The notes under the pieces were generated by a model that searched no databases, was not told the DNA's origin, and saw only the letters and a list, made by a program, of their open reading frames with translations. The translations under genes and the position numbers were made by a program. This document shows positions 6,437 to 28,538 of a DNA stretch of 56,238 nucleotides, piece after piece. Source of the stretch: Candidatus Aminicenantes bacterium (GTDB lineage Bacteria; Acidobacteriota; Aminicenantia; Aminicenantales; UBA4085); assembly GCA_016931595.1 (NCBI GenBank), contig JAFGEN010000136.1, forward strand, positions 1 through 56,238, written 5' to 3'. Position 1 is the stretch's first letter. Each line of letters starts with the position of its first letter.

Positions 6437-6437
6437 C

Positions 6438-8252: not shown

Positions 8253-8905
8253 ACGCTGACCTTTTTTCGGCTATGGCCAGGGCCGTTGTCGACGGTGACG
8301 CAGCCGCCGCGGCTGAATTGGCCCAAAACGCCCTGGCCGGACATATTCCCCCGGCCGAAGCCCTCGACAAGGGATTCGTTCCCGGGATTCGGACCGTCGG
8401 CGGGCTCTGGGAAGATGGTGAGTATTTTTTACCGGAGCTGATCGCCTCGGCTGAGGCGATGAAGGCGGCCGCCGCCGTCCTTCGACCCGCCCTGGAAGCG
8501 GCCGGCTCGACCTCGGATGCTCCCGGGACGGTTGTCATTGGAACCATCGAGGGGGATATCCACGACATCGGGAAGAACCTGGTCTCGGCCATGTTGACGG
8601 CCAACGGATTCAAGGTCATCGACCTCGGGGCCGACGTCAAGCTTACGGTGTTTCTCGAAACCGCGGAAAGCGCCGGGGCCGATCTCATCTGCCTGTCGGC
8701 TCTGTTGACGACGACCATGCTCGGCCAGCGGCGGTTCATCGAACTGCTGGTCGAACGGGGACTCCGGAGCCGCTTCAAAGTCCTGGTCGGAGGCGCTCCG
8801 ACGTCCCGAAAATGGGCCGAGGAGATCGGCGCCGATGGGTACGGCGAAAGCGCCCCTGCCGCCGTCAGGGAAGCCCTGGCTCTCTTGGGGAAGGTGTCGT
8901 CGTGA
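8249..8905 (+). CDS. Cobalamin-binding corrinoid protein (MtgC/MttC-like)
   Basis: B12-binding DxHxxG motif (GDIHDIGKN) with a downstream SALLTTT segment and an N-terminal cap helix domain. The ATG at 8249 overlaps the upstream TGA (ATGA). Confidence 0.85.
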   Translation: MNADLFSAMARAVVDGDAAAAAELAQNALAGHIPPAEALDKGFVPGIRTVGGLWEDGEYFLPELIASAEAMKAAAAVLRPALEAAGSTSDAPGTVVIGTIEGDIHDIGKNLVSAMLTANGFKVIDLGADVKLTVFLETAESAGADLICLSALLTTTMLGQRRFIELLVERGLRSRFKVLVGGAPTSRKWAEEIGADGYGESAPAAVREALALLGKVSS

Positions 8906-10390: not shown

Positions 10391-11446
10391 ATGCCGAACC
10401 ATGCTTCTTTTTTCCGGACCTTGAGACGGATTTCGGTCGTCGTCCCGGCTTCGGTTTTTCTCACCGTCCTGGTCTTCGTTCCGGTTGCGGGTCGGGACTC
10501 CCCCGCCCTCTCCGGCTTGGATCGCCTCGAAAAGCAGATCCGAAACGCGATCCGGGGCGCCGAAGGCGAGGTCGGCGTGTCCCTTCTTCATGTCGAGACG
10601 GGTCGCGAGCTGGCTGTCAACGGCGACACGCGCTTTCCCATGGCCTCGGCGTTCAAGGTGCCGGTCCTTGTCGAACTGCTGTATCAGGTCAAGGAGGGGA
10701 AATTCGGCCTGGATGAGGAAATCCGGGTGGGAAAAACCGACCAGCATATGGGCAGCGGCCTGCTCTCGGACCTGATCGCTCCCGGCATCGTTCTGTCCCT
10801 CCGAAACCTCGTCAACATGATGATGCTGATCAGCGACAACTCGGCCGCGGATATGCTCCTGTCCATGGTCGGACCGGCCAACATCAACGCCCGGCTGAAG
10901 ACCTTGGGGATTGAGGGCCTTTCGGTCGACCGTCCCTGCCAGAAGCTGATCATGGACTACTTGGGGGTGGACTACGCCGTCTACGGGCATCTCCCCCTTG
11001 ACGAAATCAGGACGGGGGGAGCTTGGACGGCTGAACAGAGAAAAGCAGCCGTCCTGGCGTTCACCGCCGACCCGCAGGACCAGTCCACTCCCCGGGCTAT
11101 GACCACCCTCCTGGCCAAGATTTTTCGACGGGAGATCATCGACCCGGCCTCATGCGACATGATTCTCGGGATCATGAGGAATTGCCAGACCGGTCAAGCC
11201 CGGATTCCTGCTTTGCTGCCCCCGGGAACCCCGGTCGCTCATAAAACGGGGACGATCGCCGGCACGGTGAACGATTGCGGGATCATCGATCTGCCGGATG
11301 GACGGGGTCATGTCGTCTTGACGGTTTGGACGAAAAATTTCCTGGGAGAAACGGAAGCGGTCGAAGCGATCATCGCCGAGATTGCACGCTTCGCCTACGA
11401 TTATTTTTATTTTGTCGACGGGTCGTCCGAACCCGTCAATCCTTGA
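10391..11446 (+). CDS. Class A beta-lactamase-like serine hydrolase (secreted)
   Basis: Motifs SxxK (SAFK), SDN (ISDNSAAD) and KTG (HKTGT) occur in the canonical order. The protein has an N-terminal signal-like segment. The RBS GAGAGGAG lies upstream. Confidence 0.75.
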   Translation: MPNHASFFRTLRRISVVVPASVFLTVLVFVPVAGRDSPALSGLDRLEKQIRNAIRGAEGEVGVSLLHVETGRELAVNGDTRFPMASAFKVPVLVELLYQVKEGKFGLDEEIRVGKTDQHMGSGLLSDLIAPGIVLSLRNLVNMMMLISDNSAADMLLSMVGPANINARLKTLGIEGLSVDRPCQKLIMDYLGVDYAVYGHLPLDEIRTGGAWTAEQRKAAVLAFTADPQDQSTPRAMTTLLAKIFRREIIDPASCDMILGIMRNCQTGQARIPALLPPGTPVAHKTGTIAGTVNDCGIIDLPDGRGHVVLTVWTKNFLGETEAVEAIIAEIARFAYDYFYFVDGSSEPVNP

Positions 11447-16715: not shown

Positions 16716-18479
16716 ATGAACAAGAAAACCTTCTTCACGACCATCGGGGCCGCAATGATCCTTTTGACCGGCCTCCTCGGGTTGCAACCCGGTTTACAGG
16801 CGGCTGAAAAGGTCACCCTGAGCTTCGATCACTGGTATGACAACGCGGCGATCGCCAAAGCGCTGATGGACCTGCAGGCCGCTTATCCGCAACTTTTAGC
16901 CGTAACCTCGATCGGCAAATCCGTCCAAGGCCGCGACATCTGGGCGGCCGTCATCAACAATCCCAAGACCGGGCCGGCCGACCGCAAGCCCGGCTACTAT
17001 ATCGACGGGAACATTCACGGAAACGAAATCCAGGGAGGCGAAGTCGCCCTTTACACGGTCAATTACCTGTTGAAGAATTACGGGAAGACGGAATTCGCGA
17101 CCCGGCTTGTCGACCGGCTGGTTTTTTACGTCATTCCGACGATGAATCCCGACAGCCGCGATTTTTACATCCACCAGGCCGCCGACCCCAATTCTCCCAG
17201 GACGGGCTGGTTTCCGATCGACGACGACAGAGACGGCCTCAAAGACGAGGACCCGCCCGAGGACCTGGACGGCGACGGGTCGATCACGATGATGCGAAAA
17301 CGCGACCCGCTCGGCCGCTGGAGGACCAGCCCCGACGATCCCCGCCTGATGGTCCCGGTCAAACCTGGGGAAAAGGGCGAATGGACCATGTTGGGCGAGG
17401 AAGGAATCGACAACGACGGCGACGGCCTGCTCAACGAGGACGGCCCCGGCTCATACGACATGAACCGCAATTTCGGTTACAACTGGCAGCCGGAGTATGT
17501 CCAGGGAGGAGCCGGTCCTTATCCGTTCCGCTGGCCGGAGACCAAGGCCGTCCGAGACTTCATCCTGGCCCATCCCAATATTTTGGGCGCCCAAAGCTAC
17601 CATAACTTCGGCGGGATGATTCTCCGGGGGCCGGGAGCAAAAAACCTGGGCGATTACAACCCGGCCGACATCCGCGTTTTCGACGAAATCGCCAAGCGCG
17701 GGGAAAAGATCATCCCCGGATACACGTACACCGTCGTCTATCGGGACATGTACACGGTCTACGGCGGGACCATCGACTTCATGTACGCCAACCTGGGAAT
17801 CTTCTGCTTTTCCAACGAGCTGGACACGGACCTTGTCGCCGAGATGAGCCCGAAAAAAGAGGGCGAAGACGAGGGCGTCATGGCCATGCTCGGACGGGAA
17901 GAGAACCTCGATGAGATGATTTTCCGGGACAACGTCGAAATGGGCGAACATTACACCGCCTGGAAATCCTACAAGCACCCGCTTTACGGCGACATCGAAA
18001 TCGGAGGAGCCGGCAAGTTCAGCGCCCGAGTCCCTCCCCTCTTCAAGCTGGCCGAGACATGCCACCGCAACGCCGCCTTTTCTCTTTACCACGCCGACCA
18101 GATGCCGGTCGCAGCCTTTGAGGCCATCTCGGTGAAGAAACTCGAAGGCGGCGTCTTTCAGGTCGATGTCCACGTGACCAACGCCAAGATCACTCCGACC
18201 ATTTCCGCCCAGGCCGTCAGCCAGAAACTCCACCGGCCCGACCGGATCGTCGTGGGCGGAAAGAACGCCGCCCTCCTGGCCGTCGGCGAGATACAGGATC
18301 GGTTCCTCGACCGGACCTTTCCGGTCAAATCGATCAAGAACACGTTCGATGTCGACGGAGGGGTTCCAGGGCGCGGCCGGCGGGAATTCCGGCTCCTGGT
18401 CAAAGGATCGGGAGCGGTCACTCTGACCTTCGAATCGCTGAAAGGCGGAACGGCCGAGAAGACGATCGAGCTGAAATAA
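16716..18479 (+). CDS. M14 family zinc carboxypeptidase, secreted
   Basis: HxxE zinc motif (GNIHGNEIQG), VIPTMNPDSRD, SYHNFGG, and acidic DxDxDG-like inserts. The RBS AAGGAGG lies 8 nt upstream. Confidence 0.85.
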   Translation: MNKKTFFTTIGAAMILLTGLLGLQPGLQAAEKVTLSFDHWYDNAAIAKALMDLQAAYPQLLAVTSIGKSVQGRDIWAAVINNPKTGPADRKPGYYIDGNIHGNEIQGGEVALYTVNYLLKNYGKTEFATRLVDRLVFYVIPTMNPDSRDFYIHQAADPNSPRTGWFPIDDDRDGLKDEDPPEDLDGDGSITMMRKRDPLGRWRTSPDDPRLMVPVKPGEKGEWTMLGEEGIDNDGDGLLNEDGPGSYDMNRNFGYNWQPEYVQGGAGPYPFRWPETKAVRDFILAHPNILGAQSYHNFGGMILRGPGAKNLGDYNPADIRVFDEIAKRGEKIIPGYTYTVVYRDMYTVYGGTIDFMYANLGIFCFSNELDTDLVAEMSPKKEGEDEGVMAMLGREENLDEMIFRDNVEMGEHYTAWKSYKHPLYGDIEIGGAGKFSARVPPLFKLAETCHRNAAFSLYHADQMPVAAFEAISVKKLEGGVFQVDVHVTNAKITPTISAQAVSQKLHRPDRIVVGGKNAALLAVGEIQDRFLDRTFPVKSIKNTFDVDGGVPGRGRREFRLLVKGSGAVTLTFESLKGGTAEKTIELK

Positions 18480-18574: not shown

Positions 18575-21520
18575 CTACATCAGCTTGAGGGAAATCATGA
18601 ATTCGTTCCGGCCTGAAAAGCCTTTTTCATAAGCTCGGGCATAACCGAATGAAAAAGTCGAATTCATCAGGGAAAACAGGACGATCCGGAAATCGAGCTG
18701 GGCCCCGAACCCGACCAGCTTCCGGCTGAAGGCCGAGTCGTCGAAATCGGTGATGATCCCCGAGGCGAAGACGGCCAGCCGGGCCCAGGTGCAGTAGAGG
18801 TCCATGAACCCGAATCGGCGGAAGGTCACTGGCGGAAGGGTCCATTCGATGGTCCCTTTGGCGAAGTTTCGGCCGCCCAACTCGTTGATGTCCAGGCCGG
18901 GGAAACTGTAGTATTCGCGGTATCGTTTTTCCGCAAGGTAATCGACCCAATTGTTTCCGAATCCGCCGAAGAAGAAACGGACGAAGTTGTTCTCCCGGTC
19001 GCCGAAAGACTGTCCGACGGCCGTCCTCAGCCAGATCGAGGAATGATTGACCGGCAGGGCCAGCCCGTAGTCGAACCGCCCGAAGATCCGGGGATAGAGC
19101 TTCCCGTTGACGTAGTTGGCCCGGGCAAACACATGCGCCCGGTAGCCTTTTTCCTCGTCGACCGCCCCGAGCGAGCGCCGGACGAAATTGTATTTCAGGC
19201 CGACCCGGGCCGAAAGCAGCTTGTCGTATGTCGCGTCGACGTTCTGGTAATCGGGCAACCGGTCGAGGCCGGCATAACCGGCAAGGCCGAACTCGAAGGT
19301 CAGGTTGCGGGGAGGGTCGTAGATCAGGTCCCGGGAATAATCGAGGCCGAGCGAATAGCCCTTCCGGCCGAACATCGTCGGGCCGAACAGGTCGTAAAAG
19401 TTGGCGTTGTTGTACGTCGCCGAGACCGTCCAGTTCCAGTAATGATAGACCAGCCCCAGGTGGAGCCGTTCCTTGGCCGGAAGGACGCTCGACGGGCTGT
19501 AGGACGCGGACACGTCGAATCCGTGGTACCGAAGGGCGTTTCGGAATTCCATCCGGACGCCCACGGCCAGGGTGTCCTTATAGCCCTCGAGAATCGGGTA
19601 GGCCGAATTCAATCCGATGTCACGGAACGAGCTGTAGGGGTCGATCGATTCGGTTAGGGATTCGATCGGGACGTCGGCCGGCGAGCCGGCCATCCAATCC
19701 TTGACCTCGGGGTATCGGTTGACCACTTCTTGGCCCAGGAAACGGACGGCGTTGACGTCCTGAAGGACTTTTTGTTCGATGAAACCGGGGAGGAACCCGT
19801 CCTTCGTATATTTGTAAACGAGGAGAGACCGGTCGTTGACGGGGAGCGGCCGGAAAAAGCCCGTTTCCGCGTTGCTCAAGACCTCCATCGTCTTTCGGGC
19901 CAGGTCGTAACGGAGAATGTTGGACACGCCGGTGTAATAGGAGGAGCCGTACAAGGCGGCGCCGTCCTCGGAAAAGCGAAAATCGGCCGGCGAGTCCGTC
20001 CCAAAATCATGGAGCTTTTCGGGCGAATAGGTACCCTTGAGCAGGTCGGCCGTGTTCATCCTGACGAGGGCTTGGTTTCCGGACACGTCGGAGACCGCCG
20101 CGGAGATCCAGGCTCCATCGGGCGACATATCGAGGCCGTACATATCCGTGTAGTAGTCGAACCCATACACGGCCGTCCAGTCGGTGTACGGAGGATCGAT
20201 CCGGACGAGGGTCGACAGGCCGATATTGTGGCGAATGCCCCAGAGGCTCTTGTCGACCGGGTTGAAAACAAGGTCTCCGATCCGGGCGTCGGTCAGAAGC
20301 TTTTCCGACGTTCCGGAACCCAGGTGATAGACACGAATGTCCCGGTAGGTGCTGTTGTCCGTGGTGAAGAACAGGCGGCCGCCGGACCGGTCGAAAGCCA
20401 GGGAGCAGACCGAGTAGAGCGAGGCCCCCTTGATGTCGCAGAGGCGCTTCATTTCGCCCGTTCCGACGTCAAATTCGGCCAGATGGGCGACCTGTCCGGG
20501 ATAATTGACTCCGGCGTACACCTTCCCCCTTTGGGCATCGTAGAATCCCCGGGACACGGAGCCCAAACGCCGGTCGGTCAGGGGCCGAAATTCGGTCACG
20601 GGGAATTTCCGGATGGTCTCCAGGTTTTCGGTCTGCCAGGTCCGTTCGGACTTCAGCCAATCGGACCATTCGTCCACCACCCGGCGGCCGAAGGTCTGCC
20701 TGAAGGAGGCCGAAAACGAGCTTTTGCTGTCTTTTTCCACGGAAACCCAATCGATGACTTTTTGCGGCCCGTATTTGACCGCCAGATGGGAAAAGAAGCG
20801 GGCGCCGTACATATAGGACAGGGCTCCGATTTGAAAATCGACCGCCGTTCCCTCGGATTCCAGGCTGAGGGCGTCGTACAGAACACCGTTTTCCAGGACC
20901 GCGGTCCGGAAGGCCATTTCATCATAGGCCCCCAAGGATCGGCCCAGTCCCCCGTTCATCCAAGTCTCCATGAAGACGGCGATCCCCTCCAGGTACCAGC
21001 GGGGCGAATACATTCTTGGGCTGGTCAAATAGGTGTAGAACATCGAGAGCGGATTTTCCTTGCTGGCTCCGACTTTTCCGAAAAAGATCTTTCGGAAAAA
21101 CGGGGCCGAGCCGAAGGGCTTGTCCATGGTCACGACGTGGACGAGCTCGTGGTTCATGATCAGGCTCATCCGCTCGTAGCCCGACATCATGTCGTAGGCA
21201 TGGTCGAAGGGCGAAAGCTCGAGAAAAACCAGGTTGCGGGGGACGGCCGTGGCCCCGCCGTTCCCCCAGTCGGCGAAATCCTCCACGAACACCGCCGTCC
21301 TTTCGGCCGGCCTGTAATTGAAGAATGTTTTGTAGTAGTCCATGGTGTTGACGAAGGACCGGGCCAGGTGCTGGACGACATACTCGTGGGCCTGGCTGTA
21401 GTAGACCAGGTTGAGGCCGGGGACTTTGAAGCTGAAAAGCGTCTGGCCGGAAAGGCCGGAGATCGACACCGCGAACATGGCCAGGAACACGAGGGGCGAC
21501 GGGCGTCGGGGAGATCTCAT
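18575..21520 (-). CDS. Secreted HExxH zinc metalloprotease-like protein with beta-propeller-like middle and beta-rich C-terminal region
   Basis: HExxH motif (MNHELVHV) with a downstream YLEGIAVFME. The signal peptide MRSPRRPSPLVFLAMFAVSISGLSG begins at the internal ATG 21520, which is preceded by GAGGAGGAGG. The middle has TolB-like repeats (RLFFTTDNS...IRVYHL). The longer ORF to 21637 runs into the upstream terminator. Confidence 0.7.
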   Translation of the reverse strand: MRSPRRPSPLVFLAMFAVSISGLSGQTLFSFKVPGLNLVYYSQAHEYVVQHLARSFVNTMDYYKTFFNYRPAERTAVFVEDFADWGNGGATAVPRNLVFLELSPFDHAYDMMSGYERMSLIMNHELVHVVTMDKPFGSAPFFRKIFFGKVGASKENPLSMFYTYLTSPRMYSPRWYLEGIAVFMETWMNGGLGRSLGAYDEMAFRTAVLENGVLYDALSLESEGTAVDFQIGALSYMYGARFFSHLAVKYGPQKVIDWVSVEKDSKSSFSASFRQTFGRRVVDEWSDWLKSERTWQTENLETIRKFPVTEFRPLTDRRLGSVSRGFYDAQRGKVYAGVNYPGQVAHLAEFDVGTGEMKRLCDIKGASLYSVCSLAFDRSGGRLFFTTDNSTYRDIRVYHLGSGTSEKLLTDARIGDLVFNPVDKSLWGIRHNIGLSTLVRIDPPYTDWTAVYGFDYYTDMYGLDMSPDGAWISAAVSDVSGNQALVRMNTADLLKGTYSPEKLHDFGTDSPADFRFSEDGAALYGSSYYTGVSNILRYDLARKTMEVLSNAETGFFRPLPVNDRSLLVYKYTKDGFLPGFIEQKVLQDVNAVRFLGQEVVNRYPEVKDWMAGSPADVPIESLTESIDPYSSFRDIGLNSAYPILEGYKDTLAVGVRMEFRNALRYHGFDVSASYSPSSVLPAKERLHLGLVYHYWNWTVSATYNNANFYDLFGPTMFGRKGYSLGLDYSRDLIYDPPRNLTFEFGLAGYAGLDRLPDYQNVDATYDKLLSARVGLKYNFVRRSLGAVDEEKGYRAHVFARANYVNGKLYPRIFGRFDYGLALPVNHSSIWLRTAVGQSFGDRENNFVRFFFGGFGNNWVDYLAEKRYREYYSFPGLDINELGGRNFAKGTIEWTLPPVTFRRFGFMDLYCTWARLAVFASGIITDFDDSAFSRKLVGFGAQLDFRIVLFSLMNSTFSFGYARAYEKGFSGRNEFMISLKLM

Positions 21521-21610
21521 GAAACCTCCTCCTCTCTCTCCTTGTGGAGTGATCTCAGAGTATCCGAGGCGGCGGGTATTTTCAAGAGGCGGGCCTGGAT
21601 GATACACGGG

Positions 21611-21652
21611 AAAAAAAGCCCCCCGGAAGGAGCCCAAGTTCCCTCCGGGGGG
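21611..21652 (-). terminator. Rho-independent terminator of the sigma/anti-sigma/repeat-protein operon
   Basis: The minus strand reads CCCCCCGGAGGG-aacttgggct-CCTTCCGGGGGG followed by C-TTTTTTT. This gives a 12-bp stem with one G-U pair. It lies 54-95 nt after the stop at 21706. Confidence 0.7.
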
Positions 21653-21705
21653 TTGTTTACCCGACTCTCCGGGATTTTTATCTCATCCCGGAACGTCGCC
21701 CGTCG

Positions 21706-23886
21706 TCACCAGTAATTGGCGAAATCGCCGCTTTTGACCATGTTGGCGAAGTTGCCGTCCTTGACCAGGTTGGCGAAATTGGCGTCCTTCATGAGATTGG
21801 AGAAAGAGCCGTCCTTCATCAAGTTGGCGAAGTTGCCGTCCTTGACCAGGTTGGCGAAATTGCCGTCCTTCATCAGGTTGGTGAAGCTTCCGTCTTTGAG
21901 GAGGTTGGCAAAGCTTCCGTCTTTGACCAGGTTGGCGAAGTTGGCGTTATTGACCAGGCCGCGGAAGCTTTCGACCTTGACCAGGTTGGCGAAATTCCCG
22001 CCATTCACGAGGAGGATGAGGTTGGCGAATCCCCCGTTTTTCACCATGTTGGCCAGGCTGCCGTTCTTCATCAGGTTGGCGAAATTGGCGTCTTTCATCA
22101 GATTGGCGAAGGACGGGTCTTTGACCAGGTTGGCCAGCCCGGGGTCCTTTGTCAGGTTGGCGAAGTTCGCATTTTTTTGCAGATTGGCGAAATCCCCGTT
22201 CTTGACCGCGTTGGCGAAGTTTGAGTCTTTGGCCAAGTTGGCGAAGTTGGGATCCTTGACCAGGTTGGAAAAATTCGGATCTTTGACCAGGTTGGCGAAG
22301 GCGTCGTTTTTCAACAGGTTGGTGAAGCCCGAGTCTTTCGTCAAATTGGCGAAATCCCCGTTGTTCACGAGCCAGACGCAGTTGGCGAATCCGCCGCTTT
22401 TGAACAGGTTGGAGAAAGAATCGGATTTAAAGAGATTGGCGAAGTTTGAGTCCTTCATCAAGTTGGCGAAAGCCGGATCCTTGACCAGATTGGCGTAATT
22501 CGGATTGTTCTCGAGATTGGCGAAATCTCCGCCCTTGACCGCGTTGGCGAACGAAGGATCCTTGGCCAGGTTGGCGAAGCCGGGATCCTTCATCAAGTTG
22601 GCGAAATTGGCGTCATTGAGGAGATTGGAGAAATTCCCGTCTTTCAACAAATTGGCGAAGTCGGCATCCTTGAAGAGATTCGCGAAGTTGCCGTTTTTGA
22701 CCAGGCTGGCGAAGTTCCCGTCCTTGACCAGGTTGGCGAAGTTCCCGTCCTTCATCAGGTTGGCGAAATTTCCATCCTGAATGAGAGGAATAAAATTCGC
22801 GCTCGGCCCGCCTTTCGTCAGATTTGCGAAATTTTCGTCCTTCACGAGGTTTGCGAAGGATGGATCCTTGACCAGGTTGGCGAAATCGGGCGTTTTGGCC
22901 CACCAGATGATGCTATTGGCGTACTCTCCGCTCTTGAAGAGATTGGCGAAATTCGCATCCTTCATGATGTTGGCGAACTCCGGCTTCGAGAAGAGATTCG
23001 CGAAGTCGCCGTTCTTGACCAGGTTGGCGTAATTCGGGTTGTTCTGGAGATTGGCGAAGTCGCCGTTCTTGACCGCATTGGCGAAGGCCGGGCCTTTGAC
23101 CAGATTGGCGAAGCTTGGATCTTTGACCAGGTTGGCGAAGGAGGGATCCTTGGCCAGGTTGGCGAAATCGCCGTTCTTCACCAATTCGATGATGACATTC
23201 GCCTGCGGACCGCTTTTGAGGAAAGCGGCGAAATTCTCGTTTTTGATCAAATTCGCGAAGCCGGCGTCATTGAAGAGATTGGCGAAATCGCCGTTTTTCA
23301 ACAGGTTCGCGAAATTCCCGTTTTTCACCAGGTTGGCAAAATTCGGGTCGTTCATCAGATTGGCGAACTCGGGCCGCAGGCAGGCATTGGAGAAATTCCC
23401 GCCCTGGATCAGGTTGGCGAAGTCCGGGTCCTTCATCAGGTTGGCAAAGCCTTCGTCCTTCACCAGGTTGGCGAATTCGGGCCGCAGCAGGAAATTGGCG
23501 AAGTCGCCGCTCTTGACCAGATTGGCCATCGACCCGTCCTTGAACAGCCCGGCGAAGTGTTCGTCCTTTACCAGGTTGGCGAAGTCCCCGTTCTTCAGCA
23601 AATTGGCGAAGTTCGGGTCCTCCATGGCCTTCTGGAAGCGGACGTTCCGGATCATATTCTGGACGTTCGGATCCTGGAGGATCCGGACGACATCCTCCTT
23701 GGTCAGGACCACATCCTTGGCCGTGACTCCACCGGCCCGGTGCCGGTCGGCCTTGGTAATGGTCCCGGCGACCTGGCCCTCGTCGGCCTTCTTCTTCAAT
23801 ACGCCGGGATTGAAAACAAACACCAGGCCGACGGCGATGACGACGATCGCCGCTCCGAACGAGAACATCTTCTGTTTTTGGGTCAT
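21706..23886 (-). CDS. Membrane-anchored nonapeptide-repeat protein (about 71 x D-[GP]-[NS]-F-A-N-L-[VM]-K); family unknown
   Basis: An uninterrupted 726-aa ORF starts at ATG 23886, preceded by GGGAGG. The N-terminus has one hydrophobic helix (FSFGAAIVVIAVGLVFVF). The remainder parses completely into 9-aa units. The opposite strand is broken into four ORFs. Confidence 0.85.
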   Translation of the reverse strand: MTQKQKMFSFGAAIVVIAVGLVFVFNPGVLKKKADEGQVAGTITKADRHRAGGVTAKDVVLTKEDVVRILQDPNVQNMIRNVRFQKAMEDPNFANLLKNGDFANLVKDEHFAGLFKDGSMANLVKSGDFANFLLRPEFANLVKDEGFANLMKDPDFANLIQGGNFSNACLRPEFANLMNDPNFANLVKNGNFANLLKNGDFANLFNDAGFANLIKNENFAAFLKSGPQANVIIELVKNGDFANLAKDPSFANLVKDPSFANLVKGPAFANAVKNGDFANLQNNPNYANLVKNGDFANLFSKPEFANIMKDANFANLFKSGEYANSIIWWAKTPDFANLVKDPSFANLVKDENFANLTKGGPSANFIPLIQDGNFANLMKDGNFANLVKDGNFASLVKNGNFANLFKDADFANLLKDGNFSNLLNDANFANLMKDPGFANLAKDPSFANAVKGGDFANLENNPNYANLVKDPAFANLMKDSNFANLFKSDSFSNLFKSGGFANCVWLVNNGDFANLTKDSGFTNLLKNDAFANLVKDPNFSNLVKDPNFANLAKDSNFANAVKNGDFANLQKNANFANLTKDPGLANLVKDPSFANLMKDANFANLMKNGSLANMVKNGGFANLILLVNGGNFANLVKVESFRGLVNNANFANLVKDGSFANLLKDGSFTNLMKDGNFANLVKDGNFANLMKDGSFSNLMKDANFANLVKDGNFANMVKSGDFANYW
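21709..23673 (-). repeat. Degenerate 27-bp tandem repeat array (about 71 units) encoding the nonapeptide repeats
   Basis: The period is visible directly, with units such as caggttggcgaaattgccgtccttcat and close variants. Identical 40-mers occur at 21742-21781 and 21823-21862, 81 nt (3 units) apart. Confidence 0.9.
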
Positions 23887-23917
23887 GATTTCCTCCCTTG
23901 ACCTTTGTTCATAGCGC

Positions 23918-24727
23918 TTATTTCTTTCCTTCGTTCATGCCGATTTGATGCTCTTTTCGGACCGGCCAGGCAAATGACCGGGAAAACAGCATTTCGCCGT
24001 CCGCGTTGGCCTGGACATCGAGGGCGGTCGGCGGATGACCCGGCGTCCGGAAGACGACGAGAAAGCCGTGAGAACCCGACACCCGCACGACGATTTTTCC
24101 GGGCATGATCTCGACGCCGCCGGTTTCGCCCGAAAGACGGCGTATGGTGTCGAACCGCATCTCCTCCGGGGAGAAACTCAGAGTGACGAGGACCTCCCTC
24201 TCCGTCAGGCCGCGCAGGCCGACGGCCAGCATGCGCTCGCCCCGGAGGACATCCACTGTTTGCTCGATTCCGGTCGACTCCCAGCCGGCCGTTTCCATAG
24301 GACTCAAGCTTTCGGCGTCCATGACGGTCCCGGCCAACTGACGGAGGTCCCATCCGGAATCCTTGACCACTCCGAACTTCGAAACCAGGAGAAGCCCCAG
24401 GCCCAGACCCAGGCCAAGGCAGAAAAACAGCGCATACTTCAACTTGATGGGTTCAAACAGGGGAGCCGGGATCCCCCTCTTTTTGACGAAATCGTTCTCG
24501 GGAATCCCCGGGCGCTGGAGAAAGGCCAGAATTTTCATCTTGAAAAACGGTCCGGGATCCGGGACGGGAGCGGTCCGCAGGAGTTCGATCGTTTCCGAGA
24601 GCTCGGCCGTATAGGTCTTGGCTTCGTTGTTACCGGCGAGGATTCGGGCCAAGGTTCGGCTTTCTTCGGCCGAATTGGTCCCATCCGATTCTTGGTTGAT
24701 CAGGCGGATGATTTCGGCCTCAAGCAT
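23918..24727 (-). CDS. Single-pass anti-sigma factor-like membrane protein
   Basis: The start overlaps the ECF sigma stop by 8 nt. The N-terminal roughly 50 aa resemble an anti-sigma domain (IIRLINQESDGTNSAEESRTLARIL) but lack the HxxxCxxC zinc motif. There is one TM helix (ALFFCLGLGLGLGLLLV) and an extracytoplasmic domain of about 150 aa. Confidence 0.6.
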   Translation of the reverse strand: MLEAEIIRLINQESDGTNSAEESRTLARILAGNNEAKTYTAELSETIELLRTAPVPDPGPFFKMKILAFLQRPGIPENDFVKKRGIPAPLFEPIKLKYALFFCLGLGLGLGLLLVSKFGVVKDSGWDLRQLAGTVMDAESLSPMETAGWESTGIEQTVDVLRGERMLAVGLRGLTEREVLVTLSFSPEEMRFDTIRRLSGETGGVEIMPGKIVVRVSGSHGFLVVFRTPGHPPTALDVQANADGEMLFSRSFAWPVRKEHQIGMNEGKK

Positions 24728-25265
24728 GGCGGAGTCCCCCGTCGCGGACGAGGATTTCCCTCAGCCGGTGTCGGGCTTCGAAAAGGCGGGATTTCACCTT
24801 GTGTTCCGGCATACCGAGCAGCTCCCCGATTTCCTTGTAGCTGAGCCCGTCAATACTCAAGGCGAGGAGAGCGCGCCGCCGGGGATGCAAGGACTCCATG
24901 GCCCGATTGATCCGGGCGTTCAATTCGCCGATCTCGCACAGGTCTTCGGGGTCGAGGACGGCGCTTTCCAAAACGGGCGGAGGAACACTCCGACGGTTCC
25001 TCTTTTCGACGAAATTCAGCGATTCGTTGACTGCGATCCGGTACAGCCAGCTGAAAAATTTGTGTCCGGGATCGTATGAAGACAGGCGGCTGAAGGCTTT
25101 GATGAAAACACCCTGGGCCACATCCCGGGCGTCCTCGGCGTTGCGTACGATACGGTAGGCCAAGCTCATCACCTGCTTCTGGTACCGGATAATGATCGAT
25201 TCAAAGGCGTCCACATCTCCCTCCAGGCAATCGCGGACGGCTTGAAGGTCTCCTTGTTCATACAT
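24720..25265 (-). CDS. ECF-type RNA polymerase sigma-70 family factor
   Basis: Region 2 (FESIIIRYQKQVMSLAYRIVRNAEDARDVAQGVFIKAF...FFSWLYRIAVNESLN) and region 4 (LSYKEIGELLGMPEHKVKSRLFEARHRLR) are both present. The internal ATG at 25265 gives a typical 181 aa. Confidence 0.9.
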   Translation of the reverse strand: MYEQGDLQAVRDCLEGDVDAFESIIIRYQKQVMSLAYRIVRNAEDARDVAQGVFIKAFSRLSSYDPGHKFFSWLYRIAVNESLNFVEKRNRRSVPPPVLESAVLDPEDLCEIGELNARINRAMESLHPRRRALLALSIDGLSYKEIGELLGMPEHKVKSRLFEARHRLREILVRDGGLRHA

Positions 25266-25414
25266 TATTACAGGCGATCGGCCCCGAAGTTGGATTTGGC
25301 CTGTTTTTGGCCCGTCGGGGGAATGACGAACGAACGAAGGAGGCAAGAATCCACACCGGGAAATCCTCCCTTCCTTCCCGGCCGGAAGGCTCTCTCCTCA
25401 TGGTTGATGCCCCG

Positions 25415-25444
25415 AATATACGTTGTCCCAAAGGCGAATGTCAA
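25415..25444 (-). promoter_or_regulatory. Candidate sigma-70-type promoter for the ECF operon (TTGACA-N18-TATATT)
   Basis: The minus-strand hexamers sit at 25439-25444 and 25415-25420. This is about 150 nt upstream of the sigma start. The match is by sequence only. Confidence 0.35.
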
Positions 25445-25479
25445 GACGGCCGACCGGTCCTGAGCGCGGGCATAGTCTC

Positions 25480-25508
25480 TTGAGAACATCGGGGAAATGA
25501 CATAGAAT
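25480..25508 (+). promoter_or_regulatory. Candidate sigma-70-type promoter for the PrsW-family gene (TTGAGA-N17-TAGAAT)
   Basis: Hexamers sit at 25480-25485 and 25503-25508. The -10 ends 14 nt before ATG 25523, which implies a very short leader. Confidence 0.3.
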
Positions 25509-25522
25509 GCATATCGCTTTTC

Positions 25523-26542
25523 ATGTGGATAACGATTGGACTAAAAATCCTGATCGGGTTTTTCCCGGTCTTGTTGTTTCTCCTGGCCTTGGTCTTCATG
25601 GACAGCTACAAACTGGTTCGGATGAAGGCGCTTCTTCCGGCCATCGCCGGCGGGGCGGCCGCAGCCGGGCTGAGCCTGCTTCTGAATTCCGGCCTGATCG
25701 GATTTTTCCAGGGGGATTTCGCTTTCTACTCCCGCTATGTCGCGCCCCTGGTCGAGGAATCGCTGAAAGCGGCCGTTCTGGTTTATTTTTTCCGGACCAA
25801 CCGGGTCGGTTTCCTGGTCGATGCGGCGATCCTGGGATTCGCGGCCGGGGCCGGATTCTCGATCGTCGAGAACATGCATTTTCTCAAGGCGGCCGTCGGG
25901 GCGGACATCGTCGTTTGGGCGGTTCGTGGCCTGGGAACGGCGATGATGCACGGCGGAACGACGGCTGTCTTCGCCTTCCTGACTAAGGCTCTCTCCGACC
26001 GGCGGACAAAGAATCATCCCTGGCCGGCCGCGGTCCCCGGCCTGGCCCTGGCCTTCACCGTTCATTCCGCCTTCAACCATTTTTTGCTGCCGCCTGTTGC
26101 GGCTGCGGCTGTGATGATGGCCGTGCTTCCCCTGGTGGCCGTCAATGTCTTCATCGCCGGCGAGCGGAGCACCCGGAAATGGCTGGAAATCGGCTTCGAT
26201 ACCGATGTCGAACTTCTCGGGTTGATCAACGCCGGCCGGTTTTCCACCAGTAAAATCGGCCGTTACGTTCTTTCCCTGAAGGACCGCTTTTCCGGGGAAG
26301 TCATGGCCGACCTATTCTGTCTCATCCGGATCCATTTGGAGTTATCCATCGGCGCCAAGGGGATTCTTCTGATGCGGGAAGCCGGCCTACCGGTCGTCCA
26401 GAACCCCGGGTTCCGGGAGAAATTCAGAGAGTTGGAATACCTTCAGAAAAGCGTCGGCCCCACGGGAATGATGGCCGTTTCACCCATCCTCCACCGCAGC
26501 CGCCGGGATTTATGGGGGTTGCACATGCTGGGAGGACAATAA
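25523..26542 (+). CDS. PrsW-family intramembrane metalloprotease with about 135-aa C-terminal cytoplasmic extension
   Basis: Polytopic N-terminal half carries EExxK (PLVEESLKAA), GFAAGAGFSIVEN, MMHGGTT and HxxxN (VHSAFNH) motifs in PrsW/CAAX-protease order. Confidence 0.72.
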   Translation: MWITIGLKILIGFFPVLLFLLALVFMDSYKLVRMKALLPAIAGGAAAAGLSLLLNSGLIGFFQGDFAFYSRYVAPLVEESLKAAVLVYFFRTNRVGFLVDAAILGFAAGAGFSIVENMHFLKAAVGADIVVWAVRGLGTAMMHGGTTAVFAFLTKALSDRRTKNHPWPAAVPGLALAFTVHSAFNHFLLPPVAAAAVMMAVLPLVAVNVFIAGERSTRKWLEIGFDTDVELLGLINAGRFSTSKIGRYVLSLKDRFSGEVMADLFCLIRIHLELSIGAKGILLMREAGLPVVQNPGFREKFRELEYLQKSVGPTGMMAVSPILHRSRRDLWGLHMLGGQ

Positions 26543-26549
26543 CCCGGGT

Positions 26550-28112
26550 TCAGGACGTCAGGGCGTTCAAGGCCACGGCAACGATGGTGACATCATCGGG
26601 AGGGGGGGTGCCTCCGGCAAACACGCGGACGGCTTCCCGCATCCCCTCGACCATTTTTTGCGGGCTCGTTCCGAGACCGGAGTCGAGCGTCCGATTGATT
26701 CGGGATTCGGTGAATAGCTCCAGAGAGGCGTTGGTTGCCTCCGAAACGCCGTCTGAGAACAAAAAGACGGCTTCCCCCGGACGGAGGCGGCCGGTGGTTG
26801 TCGAGTAGCCGCATCCTTCCAGGATTCCGAGGAACGTCCCCGTCGGCCCGGGCAGCGTCCTGTAGAGTCCTGATCCATCCGAGACGAATGGGGGGGGGTG
26901 TCCGCCGTCCGCGTAGGCGATTTCCCCGGTCCGGAGGTTCAGGACCAGGAAAAAAACGGTCACGAACATCATCATCTCGTTATCCGGTATAAGGGCGGCG
27001 TTCAGGCGCCTTAAGACCTCTCCCGGGGAATGGCCGCGCATCGCCTCCGTCTTGAGAAGCGTTTTACAGATGGCCATGAACAGGGCGGCCGGAACTCCCT
27101 TGCCGGAAACGTCGCCGATGGCCACGCCGACGCGGTCGTCGTCGATGAGAAAAAAATCGTAAAAATCACCCCCGACCTCCTTGGCCGGCTCCATGAGGGC
27201 GAAAATCTCGAACTCCGGCCGGTTCGGGAACGGCGGGAAAACCCGGGGAAGCATCGCCGCCTGAATATCCCGGGCGATCCGCAACTCGCTTTGGATTCGC
27301 TCCTTGGCCTCCGTCTCAGCCTTGAGGTTTTCGATGAATCGCTGAACGCAAAGATGGACGATCTTGAAGGCCATGTCGGAGTCGCGGCTGAACAGGCGGG
27401 TGACCTCCTCCTTGTCGATCGAATAGACGACGCAATTCTCCTCGCAGAGGGCGGATGCGGTCCGGATGTGGAAGGGGGACAGAAGCCCCATTTCTCCGAT
27501 GACATCGCCGGTCCGGACGATCTTTTCGATTTCAGGAAGCCGGATCGAACCGGAGGCGATGTAGAACATTTTTCCGGCCGGGTCGCCCTTCTGGAAAAGG
27601 ACGCTTCCTTTCGCGTGGGTTTCCCTGGTCATTGTTTCGAGGGGAAATCCCGATTCGGACATCCCCTCCGCCGTCGGCCGGATGCGGGCGGCCGGGCCGC
27701 CGGGCCGGGGAACAAACACCAGGGTCAGGATGTTTTTCCCGCCTTCCCGCCGCCAAATCGTTTCCTCGGTCAGCTGGTCGATGAAATAAATTCCCAGGCC
27801 TCCGACCTTGCGCTCCTCGAGCCCGGACCGAAGGTCCGGAGCGGCCTTCGAACGGGGATCGAAGGGAACACCCCTGTCCTCGATGTCGATTTCGACCCGA
27901 CCGGCGACGGTCCCTGTGCGCCATCGGACCTCGATTTCCCCGGATGCTTGGGGGTAGGCGTGGTGAATGATATTGACGACGGCTTCCTCGACGGCCAGCT
28001 GGATTTCCTTGATTTGGAGCGGGGAAAAGCCGTCTTCACGGCCTCGGACCTCAACGAAATCGAGGTACTGTTCCAGGTATTCGAGACGGGCGGGCAAACG
28101 CAGCGGAAGCAT
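26550..28112 (-). CDS. Fusion protein: RsbW/SpoIIAB-like serine kinase (HATPase_c_2), cyclic-nucleotide-binding domain, and PP2C/SpoIIE phosphatase
   Basis: Kinase N-box (EEAVVNIIHHAY) and G-boxes (DRGVPFDP, GGLGIYFI). cNMP phosphate-binding cassette (GDVIGEMGLL...RTASA). SpoIIE motifs (EVGGDFYDF, GDVSGKGVPAALFMA, DGGH, FSDGVSE). ATG at 28112 is preceded by GGAGG. Confidence 0.85.
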   Translation of the reverse strand: MLPLRLPARLEYLEQYLDFVEVRGREDGFSPLQIKEIQLAVEEAVVNIIHHAYPQASGEIEVRWRTGTVAGRVEIDIEDRGVPFDPRSKAAPDLRSGLEERKVGGLGIYFIDQLTEETIWRREGGKNILTLVFVPRPGGPAARIRPTAEGMSESGFPLETMTRETHAKGSVLFQKGDPAGKMFYIASGSIRLPEIEKIVRTGDVIGEMGLLSPFHIRTASALCEENCVVYSIDKEEVTRLFSRDSDMAFKIVHLCVQRFIENLKAETEAKERIQSELRIARDIQAAMLPRVFPPFPNRPEFEIFALMEPAKEVGGDFYDFFLIDDDRVGVAIGDVSGKGVPAALFMAICKTLLKTEAMRGHSPGEVLRRLNAALIPDNEMMMFVTVFFLVLNLRTGEIAYADGGHPPPFVSDGSGLYRTLPGPTGTFLGILEGCGYSTTTGRLRPGEAVFLFSDGVSEATNASLELFTESRINRTLDSGLGTSPQKMVEGMREAVRVFAGGTPPPDDVTIVAVALNALTS

Positions 28113-28137
28113 CGGTGCCTCCCCTGTTTTCGGAGAC

Positions 28138-28470
28138 TCAGAACCGGCCGTGGGCCGACTCGACCGAATCCTCGACGGCAAAGACTGAGCCGAACCCGGA
28201 AATGGTGAACACTTCCTTGACGACATCCTTGACGCAGGCGATGACAACCTTGCCTTTCTTCGCCGAGAGCTTCTTGCCAAGGATCAGGAGGCTTCGGAGG
28301 CCGGCACTGCTGATGTACTCCAGCCCGGTGAAGTTCAAGATGAAATTCGCCTCCCCGGCGGACAACCACTCGTCGCATTTGCGGTCGAATTCCTGCGAGG
28401 AGACGGCGTCCATCCGGCCTTCCACGGCGACCACAAGACGCCCATTTTCGTTTTTTCCTTCGATTTTCAT
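28138..28470 (-). CDS. STAS-domain anti-sigma-factor antagonist
   Basis: 110 aa with a SpoIIAA/RsbV-like core (LNFTGLEYISSAGLRSLL) carrying a phosphorylatable Ser at the conserved position. It lies 25 nt upstream of the kinase-phosphatase fusion. Confidence 0.85.
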   Translation of the reverse strand: MKIEGKNENGRLVVAVEGRMDAVSSQEFDRKCDEWLSAGEANFILNFTGLEYISSAGLRSLLILGKKLSAKKGKVVIACVKDVVKEVFTISGFGSVFAVEDSVESAHGRF

Positions 28471-28538
28471 GTCCCTTCCTCGGGCCGAGATTATCGGGCG
28501 GCCGCGGATGTCCGTGCCCGGGCCGTCCCGCACGGATT

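Follow-up and report, generated by a model that had tools for sequence, protein, structure and literature searches.

By its alignments, the 726-aa protein encoded on the reverse strand of the window (the whole stretch of 56,238 nucleotides analysed here) is a hyper-expanded member of an unnamed family in which a transmembrane (TM) anchor is followed by a juxtamembrane module of the form GTIGxAxRY..Q..DVxL and then by nonapeptide repeats. The family has a fixed place in a gene cassette that comprises an RsbW-like kinase, a STAS protein, an ECF sigma factor, an RsiW-like anti-sigma factor, the repeat protein, a ~1000-aa HExxH protein and a PrsW protease. We lean slightly towards a reading of the repeat protein as the anchored helical-repeat arm of a proteolytic switch of the sigmaW/RsiW/PrsW type. 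ECF sigma/anti-sigma pairs are among the main signalling devices of bacteria and, to our knowledge, the extracytoplasmic input domain and the stimulus are not known for most ECF groups. The features discussed below are listed in Table 1.

Table 1. Features of the repeat gene and its neighbours, in order of position in the window.
Feature	Position	Strand	Basis or description
Partner protein, ~981 aa	18575..21520	-	Signal-peptide-like N-terminus, invariant HExxH, beta-rich middle, weak Omp85-like C-terminus
Intrinsic-terminator-like hairpin	21619..21652	-	13-bp stem (10 GC), then T-run; ~55 nt past stop
CDS of TM-anchored nonapeptide-repeat protein, 726 aa, ATG start	21706..23886	-	ORF list
Array of 71 tandem units, residues 72-726	21709..23673	-	Parse, periodicity statistics, TRF, predicted helices
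Juxtamembrane module, residues 41-61, GTITKADRHRAGGVTAKDVVL	23704..23766	-	Best-conserved block of family alignment A2
N-terminal transmembrane anchor, residues 8-25, FSFGAAIVVIAVGLVFVF	23812..23865	-	Sole hydrophobic stretch; kept in all homologues
Shine-Dalgarno GGAGG	6 nt 5' of repeat-protein start	-	Strong site
Putative anti-sigma factor, 269 aa	23918..24727	-	RsiW-like N-terminal domain, one TM, ~145-aa periplasmic domain
ECF sigma factor	24720..25265	-	Sigma70_r2, r4_2 and ECF matches; TIGR02937 above cut-off
Sigma70-type promoter-like site TTGACA-N18-TATATT	25415..25444	-	11/12 match; 5' of sigma/anti-sigma/repeat operon
PrsW-family intramembrane protease	25523..26542	+	PF13367, 62.7 bits; divergent from operon
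HATPase_c_2 (RsbW-like) + cNMP-binding + SpoIIE/PP2C phosphatase fusion	26550..28280	-	Domain matches
STAS-domain (RsbV-like anti-anti-sigma) protein	28138..28533	-	Domain match

The repeat protein and its family

A preliminary description of this locus had proposed a single hydrophobic N-terminal helix that anchors a very regular array of 71 nonapeptide-type units, and both proposals were borne out. Residues 8-25 are the only hydrophobic segment, and a parse from residue 72 recovered the same unit numbers (65 units of 9 aa, three of 12, two of 13 and one of 8, with nothing left over) and the same consensus, D-[GP]-[NDS]-F-A-N-L-[VML]-K. The counts per position in the exact nonamers were D35/N15, G24/P20/A8, N24/D12/S11, F54, A52, N57, L51, V23/M11/L7/F7 and K50. 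Residue identity at lag 9 was 0.486, compared to 0.098 +/- 0.012 in 1000 shuffles (maximum 0.135); the periodicity held at lags 18 and 27, and the autocorrelation peaked only at 9, 18 and 27. The anchor is flanked by KQK before and KKK after it, which leaves the positive-inside rule alone ambiguous for topology.

TRF reported periods of 27, 54 and 108 nt in the repeat gene, and the opposite strand has open mirror ORFs, as might be expected of a misassembled or non-coding tandem DNA repeat that is open by chance. This explanation, to which we give next to no credence, is effectively refuted. The 65 nonamer units include no identical pair at the DNA level and share a mean pairwise DNA identity of 64%, their synonymous codons differ (N, AAC36/AAT24; K, AAG31/AAA22), and the longest exact DNA repeat within the gene is 40 nt. 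Furthermore, the gene has a strong Shine-Dalgarno sequence and a terminator, three syntenic full-length homologues keep the irregular units, and the family has hundreds of members. The concern raised earlier that the array could be an artefact of assembly is answered by this divergence of the units and by the homologues.

A lookup of contigs encoding the exact 726-aa protein returned no record, and word-index homologue searches with the full protein and with residues 1-125 gave no matches; relatives were found instead by an exhaustive HMMER search, which returned 489 representative clusters at E<=1e-3, and by a profile of the juxtamembrane module. Three independent MAG homologues (733, 734 and 851 aa) can be aligned with the 726-aa protein over the full length; the long irregular units are common to them, and the super-motif FANAV[KR]-xxxFANLQ[NQK] recurs at positions that are conserved. 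Of the top 150 representative clusters, 36 have the module, with the signature G-T-I-G-x-A-x-R-Y-[RQ]-x-x-Q-x-x-x-x-D-V-x-L, and 13 of these 36 carry an N-terminal extension of at least 100 aa. The module is also found in the metagenome loci and in the inspected members from the second search, most of which match its regex. The same layout is found in the 726-aa protein, with the TM at 8-25, the module at 41-61 and the repeats at 72-726 (alignments A1, A2 and A3). A metagenome scan with the subfamily alignment A5 confirmed the family at no fewer than 264 loci, and none of 57 further members has a name other than 'hypothetical' or a recorded Pfam domain. The median length in the family is about 330 aa, with 135-494 aa at the metagenome loci and 726-851 aa in Aminicenantes, and the hydrophobic autocorrelation peaked at lag 9 in 33 of 44 members and at lag 18 in 6.

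Many strong HMMER matches were rejected as periodicity-driven and non-homologous, among them giant virus-like or fibre-like proteins with LVSTANLxN nonamers (P0003, P0005 and P0009) and eukaryotic low-complexity nonamer proteins (P0004, P0006 and P0010). P0009 ends in a tail-spike chaperone-like segment.

Operon and gene cassette

Judged by its transcription signals and spacing, the repeat gene shares one transcript with the genes of the ECF sigma factor and the anti-sigma factor; this transcript starts at a conserved sigma70-like promoter, and the repeat gene has a terminator of its own. The promoter block CTTGACA...GTATATT is invariant across five loci, the sigma and anti-sigma genes overlap by 8 nt, 31 nt separate the anti-sigma gene from the repeat gene, and L001, L002 and L003 have an equivalent hairpin with T-run in the corresponding position. 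The sigma ORF is open to 25346, and the ATG at 25265 is the conserved start according to L003, L010 and the alignment; the nearest equivalogs are RpoE and SigW. An Rfam search with the conserved leader 5' of the sigma gene found no family, and the motif AACTT-N13-15-GTAAT, sought across the window as a possible regulon marker, occurs in a single copy, before the sigma gene.

Synteny was counted in 80 metagenome loci, which represent one sequence-similar subfamily and are phylogenetically not independent, including only loci with enough flank. The sigma gene lies upstream of the repeat gene in 25 of 27 loci, and STAS and HATPase_c_2 genes were each found upstream in 18 of 18 (at least 2.6 kb upstream). 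Directly downstream is the gene of the ~1000-aa HExxH protein (27/27; at least 1.5 kb downstream), and PrsW was present in all ten loci with enough downstream sequence. PrsW is likewise in the cassette of L001-L003, L010, L013 and L015, and STAS genes are also found in L004, L010, L013 and L015. All components are present in the window (18575-28533), which departs from the norm in two ways: its PrsW gene is divergent rather than downstream, and its RsbW-like domain forms a fusion with a PP2C phosphatase. The cassette is common in soil Acidobacteriota (Vicinamibacteria and Aminicenantes), which are abundant and poorly studied.

HExxH is present in 26 of 26 long (>900-aa) homologues of the partner protein, at an equivalent N-terminal position unless the ORF start was over-extended. 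The only match of the ~981-aa protein was a weak one to Omp85_2 (E=0.003, below cut-off), and its gene has its own conserved sigma70-like promoter of the TTGAAA/TTGCAA-N17-GATAAT type.

Link to anti-sigma factors

The 269-aa anti-sigma factor alone had no Pfam or NCBIfam match, and its ~145-aa periplasmic domain matches no family. A profile built from the N-terminal extensions of family members and the N-terminus of the window anti-sigma factor (A4) matched RsiW of B. subtilis (5wuq_C) with E=5e-11 over 69 residues, and further RskA (0.011) and RslA (0.013), and the NCBIfam 'anti-sigma factor' model NF052375 matches P0017 and P0002. The N-termini of the window anti-sigma factor and of P0002 are 42% identical (E=9e-14), and P0002, found on three independent contigs with synteny as in the window, is a homologue of this N-terminus fused to a homologue of the repeat protein. 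Fused proteins are encoded directly after ECF sigma genes. With an anti-sigma-domain HMM at E<=1e-3, the N-terminal extension was unrecognised in several 'fused' loci. The zinc-binding HxxxCxxC (ZAS) motif was sought in the aligned anti-sigma N-terminal domains and no Cys/His motif was found, and zf-HC2 gave weak matches only (best E 0.023; 5 of 15 members). Homology to RsiW-like class I anti-sigma domains, encoded directly after an ECF sigma gene, applies to the 269-aa neighbour and to the fused N-termini, and not to the repeat protein.

In the fused relatives, the equivalent TM helix sits between the cytoplasmic anti-sigma domain and the repeats. Because the repeat domain is fused to an anti-sigma domain in some lineages, the repeats are placed outside the cytoplasm, in agreement with the location first proposed. 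The same description had placed the gene under dedicated ECF control, which was imprecise. The repeat gene is on one transcript with the sigma and anti-sigma genes, and by synteny and gene fusion it looks like part of the regulatory apparatus itself, rather than a demonstrated target of it.

Curated models and predicted fold

The array had initially been thought to fit no repeat family, and this holds only in part, as two curated models scored above cut-off. Pfam STI1-HOP_DP (PF17830) matched the 726-aa protein with 67.7 bits (cut-off 29.1; E=8.5e-19) in four stretches, of which the best covers profile positions 4-30 only, so that the full five-helix domain of ~55 positions is not matched; in relatives the matches span positions 4-29, 5-24 and 14-50, and no single stretch is significant. 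NCBIfam TPR_END_plus (NF047558) gave 84 bits (cut-off 32), with 54.4 for L001 and 39.9 for L002, in a match repeatedly limited to the last ~20-28 of its 56 positions (28-55), while shorter family members scored 19-21 bits (below cut-off) or had no match. A search of the 726-aa protein for TPR repeats with Pfam and NCBIfam gave no match. Both scores are inflated because a "DP" motif of ~20 residues is matched over many repeats. The Pfam comparison called for at the outset thus leaves a motif-level similarity whose above-cut-off scores are summed over many repeats, and no existing family model describes the family. A literature search on anti-sigma factors with STI1, nonapeptide repeats and ECF classification found no description of it either. 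The label 'STI1/HOP DP' or 'TPR end-of-group' that automated annotation will give to such proteins is misleading.

Comparison with hhalign of the family and STI1-HOP_DP gave a probability of 44% over 21 columns, and the family profile weakly retrieved STI1 DP2 (2llw, E=0.091) and HOP (7kw7_E, E=0.69) from the PDB. The single sequence searched by phmmer against the PDB returned only noise (a porin and SRP54) and neither of these two structures.

Modelling predicts a helical array with one short helix per unit and no beta structure. AlphaFold2 with the single sequence placed one helix in each unit over the whole array with low confidence (pLDDT 51.9), and with the family alignment, residues 36-237 gave 20 short helices in register with the units at moderate confidence (pLDDT 77.6, pTM 0.58); the juxtamembrane module was a low-confidence coil. 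In each unit, D/N-P/G would cap a helix of 6-7 residues with F4, L7 and V/M/L8 on one face, and the units together may form an alpha-helical solenoid or rod from a DP-type motif. A Foldseek search of the PDB with the 202-residue model found no solved analogue and no DP domain (best E 0.83, TM<0.3), and the matches of the low-confidence full-length model and the 202-residue model were designed helical repeats, TAL effectors and GPCRs (E>=0.013 or 0.8).

Of the two folds suggested at first, these models agree with the stacked short helix-turn units capped by D-P/G (one helix of 5-9 residues per unit) and lend no support to the beta-roll of 18 residues per turn. A beta-solenoid, beta-roll fibre or adhesin with RTX-like or pentapeptide-like geometry is highly improbable in our view. 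The period of nine is that of RTX, the A-N-L core resembles the pentapeptide A(D/N)LxX, and there was a weak NCBIfam match to the LIC20035 adhesin, which was dropped at 31 bits (cut-off 250) and for which a literature search was uninformative. However, both AlphaFold2 runs gave only helices, and the hydrophobic pattern at i, i+3 and i+4, the D/N-P/G N-caps and the C-terminal Lys are a helix signature; in homologue L002 the caps turn Ala-rich (A28% of the array), which favours a helix as well. In addition, the family is tied to anti-sigma factors and not to secretion systems. RTX is further argued against by position counts without a Gly-rich/Asp motif, with no GGxGxD in the array, and by the lack of an RTX/HemolysinCabind Pfam match, and the pentapeptide repeat by a lag-5 autocorrelation of 0.037 and no Pentapeptide Pfam match. 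The exclusion of these two families, as of LbH and LRR, was upheld.

Proposed function

We propose that the 726-aa protein would be anchored in the inner membrane with its N-terminus in and its C-terminus out, so that its part of ~655 residues would be periplasmic. There it may serve the anti-sigma factor as a sensing or regulatory arm outside the cytoplasm (a co-anti-sigma) and may gate the PrsW-initiated regulated proteolysis of the anti-sigma factor that would release the ECF sigma factor, after the sigmaW/RsiW/PrsW paradigm of Bacillus. A gene that shares its transcript with an ECF sigma factor sometimes encodes an effector and not a regulator, which counts against a regulatory arm. PrsW is the site-1 protease of RsiW (PMC4598750). 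The analysis shows the repeats, the family, its synteny and fusions, the RsiW-like homology of the anti-sigma domain and the predicted helical state; contact of the repeat protein with PrsW, the ~1000-aa protein or the anti-sigma factor, its control of proteolysis and the kind of signal are inferences only. As a separate polypeptide in the window, beside an anti-sigma factor with a periplasmic domain of its own, the repeat protein may not touch that factor.

The gene directly downstream raises a second, unlikely possibility, namely that the repeat protein is a periplasm-spanning rod linking the HExxH/beta-barrel-like protein, presumed to lie in the outer membrane, to the anti-sigma/PrsW switch in the inner membrane, with the signal passing from the outer to the inner membrane as in FecA-FecR-FecI cell-surface signalling. 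The 27 of 27 loci with this gene order, the signal-peptide-like N-terminus, invariant HExxH and weak Omp85-like C-terminus of its product, the N-terminal anchor and predicted long, regular helical ectodomain of the repeat protein, and the diderm markers in the window (OEP/TolC and OMP_b-brl) are in line with such a connection. Yet the array length varies about five-fold in the family, a poor fit to a fixed periplasmic ruler, and no C-terminal globular 'contact' domain follows the repeats. Moreover, the outer-membrane placement is presumptive, the Omp85_2 match being below cut-off, and the partner gene in the window is a separate transcription unit behind a terminator.

A quite improbable third reading takes the repeat protein as a stress effector merely co-expressed with the sigma factor, that is, a periplasmic holdase or scaffold that is tethered to the membrane and binds hydrophobic or unfolded segments through its many DP-like units. 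In eukaryotes, STI1/HOP DP and ubiquilin STI1 domains bind such segments. DP domains in ECOD consist of short helices with ~90-degree [DN]P turns and bind partners (PMC12353581), and the STI1-HOP_DP score lies above gathering and recurs faintly across the family, whose profile weakly retrieves the STI1 and HOP structures. The similarity is nevertheless confined to ~21 columns, and a packed solenoid would bury the hydrophobic positions and not expose them to clients. The recurrent RsiW-like fusion and the invariant place between the anti-sigma and ~1000-aa genes instead favour a regulatory role.

Beyond the regulatory arm, we put forward tentatively, and with more doubt than confidence, that the array is a previously unseen alpha-solenoid of 9-residue helix-turn units, the shortest helical repeat known, with D/N-P/G caps and an invariant Asn. 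As an inner-membrane-anchored periplasmic rod it might sense or transmit an envelope signal and, with the ~1000-aa HExxH/beta-barrel-like protein, the RsiW-like anti-sigma factor, PrsW and RsbW/RsbV, form a new machine for signalling across the envelope that is widespread among Acidobacteriota of soils and sediments. Arrays of up to ~70-90 such units without a solved analogue would widen the known range of helical repeat proteins and could interest protein designers. The work defines a widespread, un-annotated candidate input module with at least 264 metagenome loci, a recognisable signature and a fixed seven-gene context, which holds two putative proteases (PrsW and the HExxH protein) and a partner-switching pair, and the whole cassette in soil Vicinamibacteria and Aminicenantes becomes directly testable.

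Comparison with known systems

The units resemble STI1/HOP DP domains (PF17830; 2LLV, 2LLW) in their [DN]P-started short helices, spacing of ~9 residues and h-x-x-h-h pattern, and AMKDPEVAAIMQDPVMQSILQ of STI1 is comparable to KAMEDPNFANLLKNGDFANLVK of the window. In contrast to the repeat protein, these domains are five-helix globular modules of ~55-70 aa in eukaryotic cytosolic co-chaperones, whereas the repeat protein is bacterial and extracytoplasmic, with 71 units and a different N-terminal module and genomic context. The TPR_END_plus model presumably ends in a double motif of the DPxFxxL[RK]xDPRFxxLL type, the same nonapeptide pattern, but this domain terminates runs of TPR and the repeat protein has none. 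With RTX proteins (GGxGxDxUx beta-roll) the repeat protein shares the tandem period of nine and a long regular array; it differs in the absent Gly/Asp calcium motif, the predicted all-helical fold and the N-terminal membrane anchor, and it is RTX proteins that use type I secretion via a C-terminal signal. Likeness to TolA/TonB and FecR-type proteins is one of architecture only (an N-terminal inner-membrane anchor, a long periplasmic region, and an ECF sigma factor with an envelope partner), as there is no sequence similarity and no C-terminal globular domain, and the cassette has no TonB-dependent receptor or FecR domain.

In the sigmaW/RsiW/PrsW system of B. subtilis, as in the cassette, an ECF sigma factor stands beside a single-pass RsiW-like anti-sigma factor, and the cassette includes a PrsW-family gene; in Bacillus, prsW is not known to be linked to sigW. 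Unlike RsiW, the anti-sigma domains of the family have no zinc-binding Cys motif, and the RsiW ectodomain is not known to be related to the repeat protein. The host here is diderm, unlike Bacillus, and to the Bacillus switch the cassette adds a nonapeptide-repeat membrane protein, a ~1000-aa HExxH protein and RsbW/RsbV-like partner-switching genes.

Repeat Gene and Array

The repeat gene is a real open reading frame of 726 aa, starting with an ATG that is preceded, six bases 5', by a GGAGG at the Shine-Dalgarno position. The sole hydrophobic helix spans residues 8-25, and everything from residue 72 to the C-terminus can be parsed completely into 71 units (65 of nine residues, three of 12, two of 13, and a closing one of eight), which exactly reproduces the single helix and the unit parse of the preliminary description. 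Its consensus, D-[GP]-[NDS]-F-A-N-L-[VML]-K, was also borne out, as F, A, N, and L each occur in 51-57 of the 59 scored nonamers, and lag-9 residue identity was 0.486 compared to 0.098 +/- 0.012 in shuffles. At the DNA level, Tandem Repeats Finder identified periods of 27, 54, and 108 nt. The units all differ from one another in nucleotide sequence, being 64% identical on average with a mixture of synonymous codons, and exact repeats measure at most 40 nt.

Three full-length alignable MAG homologs were obtained, encoded by loci L001 (733 aa) and L002 (851 aa), both labeled Aminicenantes, and by L003 (734 aa), labeled Eubacteriales, yet syntenic and 69% identical. In their alignment, the long irregular units occupy conserved positions, as do the three occurrences of a FANAV[KR]-xxxFANLQ[NQK] motif. 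Because the unit DNA is divergent, synonymous codons are mixed and the irregular units are kept in all three homologs, the 71-unit array is judged old and under selection, and neither a recent nor an artefactual expansion. The L003 contig (CAYPKX010000051.1, titled "uncultured Eubacteriales") shows complete synteny with both the Aminicenantes loci and the window and is probably mis-binned or mis-labeled. Long open frames on the strand opposite the repeat gene mirror the sense repeats and even score on the repeat-family HMM; it is almost certain that none of them is a gene, but gene finders could mis-call them.

Predicted Fold

From the single sequence, AlphaFold2 placed one helix of 5-9 residues in every unit with low confidence (pLDDT 51.9). 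When it was supplied with a family alignment (A3) composed of family members and non-overlapping segments of the repeat protein itself, residues 36-237 were predicted with moderate confidence (pLDDT 77.6, pTM 0.58) as 20 short helices in nonamer register, and the juxtamembrane module as low-confidence coil. The nonamer pattern also agrees with a helix: D/N caps its N-terminus, P/G takes its first position, residues i, i+3, and i+4 are hydrophobic, and Lys closes its C-terminal end; in the L002 array the caps are mostly Ala instead. Of the two folds considered earlier, short helix-turn units are thus favored by one predicted helix per unit, while a beta-roll is unsupported because both the AlphaFold2 models and the sequence logic point to helices. 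The array is without a solved structural analog, none being found by Foldseek with both models.

An Unannotated Protein Family

An exhaustive HMMER search returned 489 representative clusters (E<=1e-3), of which 36 among the top 150 combine a single transmembrane helix (TM), a conserved module and nonapeptide repeats. The module is strongly conserved, lies ~15-20 residues past the TM and reads G-T-I-G-x-A-x-R-Y-[RQ]-x-x-Q-x-x-x-x-D-V-x-L, followed by xDxxxQxxLQxDxF. A profile of this TM/module region added 57 members, one from a Vicinamibacterales MAG, all unnamed or "hypothetical" and none with a recorded Pfam domain. A pattern scan of JGI metagenomes yielded at least 264 confirmed family loci, chiefly from soil and sediment, with unit types including ADPALARLA, ASPDFARLV, and ADAEFQHLM; the autocorrelation of the repeat regions peaked at lag 9 in 33 of 44 and at lag 18 in six of 44. 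The median protein length in the family is ~330 aa; the repeat protein of the window is hyper-expanded, as are its Aminicenantes relatives.

Many strong HMMER matches were rejected as periodicity artefacts, including virus- or fibre-like LVSTANLxN proteins and eukaryotic low-complexity proteins. P0003, P0005, and P0009 are giant proteins of 2900-3900 aa with runs of LVSTANL[AST]N nonapeptides, and the end of P0009 resembles a tail-spike intramolecular-chaperone domain. These are probably large-virus or fibre proteins, which have the "ANL" nonamer periodicity in common with the repeat protein, but not the module or the gene context.

Gene Neighborhood

In the window, genes for an ECF sigma factor and a 269-aa single-pass protein, overlapping by 8 nt, precede the repeat gene by a gap of 31 nt, and a strong terminator-like hairpin, kept in homologous loci, lies 3' of it (see table). 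Neighbor HMMs built from the window genes were scanned over 80 metagenome loci, which represent one subfamily and are not independent; among those with enough flanking sequence, the sigma gene was upstream on the same strand in 25 of 27, STAS and HATPase_c_2 genes were each present in 18/18, a ~1000-aa homolog of the 981-aa protein was encoded directly downstream in 27/27, and PrsW followed the latter in 10/10. The usual order is HATPase_c_2, STAS, sigma, anti-sigma, repeat protein, 1000-aa protein, PrsW. The RsbW-like kinase is a separate small gene in most related cassettes, unlike in the window, where its unusual fusion to cNMP-binding and SpoIIE/PP2C domains suggests that this ECF sigma factor also receives a second input, dependent on cNMP.

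Features of the window and of homologous loci
Feature	Position	Strand	Remark
MTTB-family trimethylamine methyltransferase, RACo-type corrinoid activase upstream; then class-A-like beta-lactamase-family gene	6381-10374, 10391-11446	+	unrelated to the repeat protein
M14 zinc-carboxypeptidase pair	14667-16703, 16716-18479	+	adjacent genes flanking the cassette
981-aa conserved protein	18575-21520	-	directly downstream of repeat gene; own sigma70-like promoter
Repeat gene	21706-23886	-	
Open frames antisense to repeat gene	21716-22498, 22505-22780, 22781-23032, 23039-23914	+	LAKLPSLTR-type translated repeats
269-aa putative RsiW-like anti-sigma factor	23918-24727	-	
CAACTT-N14-TGTAAT element	25267-25291	-	L001 6594-6618; L002 6554-6578; L010 5433-5457
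HATPase_c_2/cNMP/PP2C protein	26550-28280	-	RsbW-like kinase, cyclic-nucleotide-binding and SpoIIE/PP2C phosphatase domains in one polypeptide
STAS protein	28138-28533	-	adjoins HATPase_c_2/cNMP/PP2C gene
PrsW-family protease	window neighborhood	divergent	

A conserved CAACTT-N14-TGTAAT element, present once in the window (0.04 expected), stops 1-5 nt short of the sigma ATG, which has no Shine-Dalgarno sequence. It could act as an autoregulatory promoter of the ECF type, from which a leaderless mRNA would be made. An invariant CTTGACA-N17-GTATATT promoter is located ~150 nt further upstream, and the sigma-gene leader had no Rfam match. L001, L003, and L010 (a further homologous locus) have the M14 gene pair in synteny; N/X runs occur inside the M14 gene of L003.

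The 981-aa protein falls in none of the Pfam or NCBIfam families and may, like the repeat protein, be undescribed. All 26 long (>900-aa) homologs carry an HExxH (HELVH) motif, often followed by W[YF]xEGxA, and a conserved M-[VI]-S-L-K-[IL]-[LM] is located at the C-terminus. The protein has a signal-peptide-like N-terminus, a beta-rich middle and a weakly Omp85_2-like C-terminus. One main alternative for the repeat protein is a periplasm-spanning connector to this partner, but the five-fold variation in array length speaks against a ruler.

Fusion to an Anti-sigma Domain

N-terminal extensions of at least 100 aa were present in 13 of the 36 representative family clusters. A profile of these extensions and the N-terminus of the 269-aa protein matched the solved anti-sigma-W factor RsiW (E=5e-11), followed by RskA and RslA, and the NCBIfam "anti-sigma factor" model matched two fused N-termini. 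Several fused N-termini were too divergent for our own anti-sigma HMM. P0002, in which a homolog of the window anti-sigma N-terminus (42% identity) is joined to a repeat-protein homolog, is a clean Rosetta-stone fusion. Three independent contigs carry it among the neighbors seen in the window (STAS, PrsW, sigma, a 982-aa protein, and M14 peptidases); other fused proteins are encoded directly after ECF sigma genes. In such fusions the anti-sigma part has to lie in the cytoplasm, and as a single TM comes after it, the repeats are placed on the extracytoplasmic side, in line with the location outside the cytoplasmic membrane proposed initially. The fused architecture thereby settles the topology, on which the positive-inside rule by itself was ambiguous. 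Residues ~125-269 of the anti-sigma factor form a periplasmic domain without a match in Pfam, NCBIfam or PDB; it is kept in split loci (own HMM, E 1e-7 to 1e-12), and fused proteins lack it.

The site-1 protease of Bacillus RsiW is PrsW, which upon envelope damage initiates the regulated proteolysis of this anti-sigma factor and so releases sigmaW (PMC4598750). Given this role, the anti-sigma fusions and the conserved cassette, the best-supported reading is that the repeat protein would serve as an extracytoplasmic sensing or regulatory arm of the RsiW-like anti-sigma factor, as part of a switch that depends on PrsW, with the arm encoded as a separate polypeptide in the window and fused to the anti-sigma domain in some relatives. 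The anti-sigma fusions and the fixed gene order speak against the other main alternative, a DP-like holdase effector. All functional statements on the repeat protein derive from synteny, fusion and homology; what signal the arm would sense, which partners it would bind and whether it would shield from cleavage or trigger it are points that we infer.

Relation to Known Systems

RTX, pentapeptide, LbH, and LRR identities were ruled out on three counts, motif, repeat period and secondary-structure prediction, as anticipated. The broader statement that it could be placed in no repeat family held only in part, as two curated models scored above their cut-offs, Pfam STI1-HOP_DP (67.7 bits, cut-off 29.1) and NCBIfam TPR_END_plus (84 bits, cut-off 32). 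However, only profile positions ~4-30 of 55 and ~28-55 of 56, respectively, were matched, many times over, the family profile reached E=0.09 against STI1 DP2 (2llw) and E=0.69 against HOP, hhalign gave 44% probability over 21 columns, and shorter relatives scored below both cut-offs. For these reasons the repeat protein is not assigned to the STI1/HOP DP-domain or TPR-end proteins, and the kinship is at motif level only.

The family libraries and literature searched contain no description of the dedicated family of nonapeptide-repeat proteins, of its juxtamembrane signature, of the cassette of seven genes or of the extreme 71-unit array. As the family is abundant, unannotated and has no solved structural analog, the finding is substantial despite a known motif and a familiar type of system, the signaling logic of ECF sigma factor, class I anti-sigma factor and PrsW being already established. 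According to the ECOD curators, DP domains consist of short helices with ~90-degree [DN]P turns between them (PMC12353581), a feature also found in the predicted array. The building block that the repeat protein shares with the STI1/HOP and TPR-end models is the known "DP" nonapeptide, which it repeats about 70 times.
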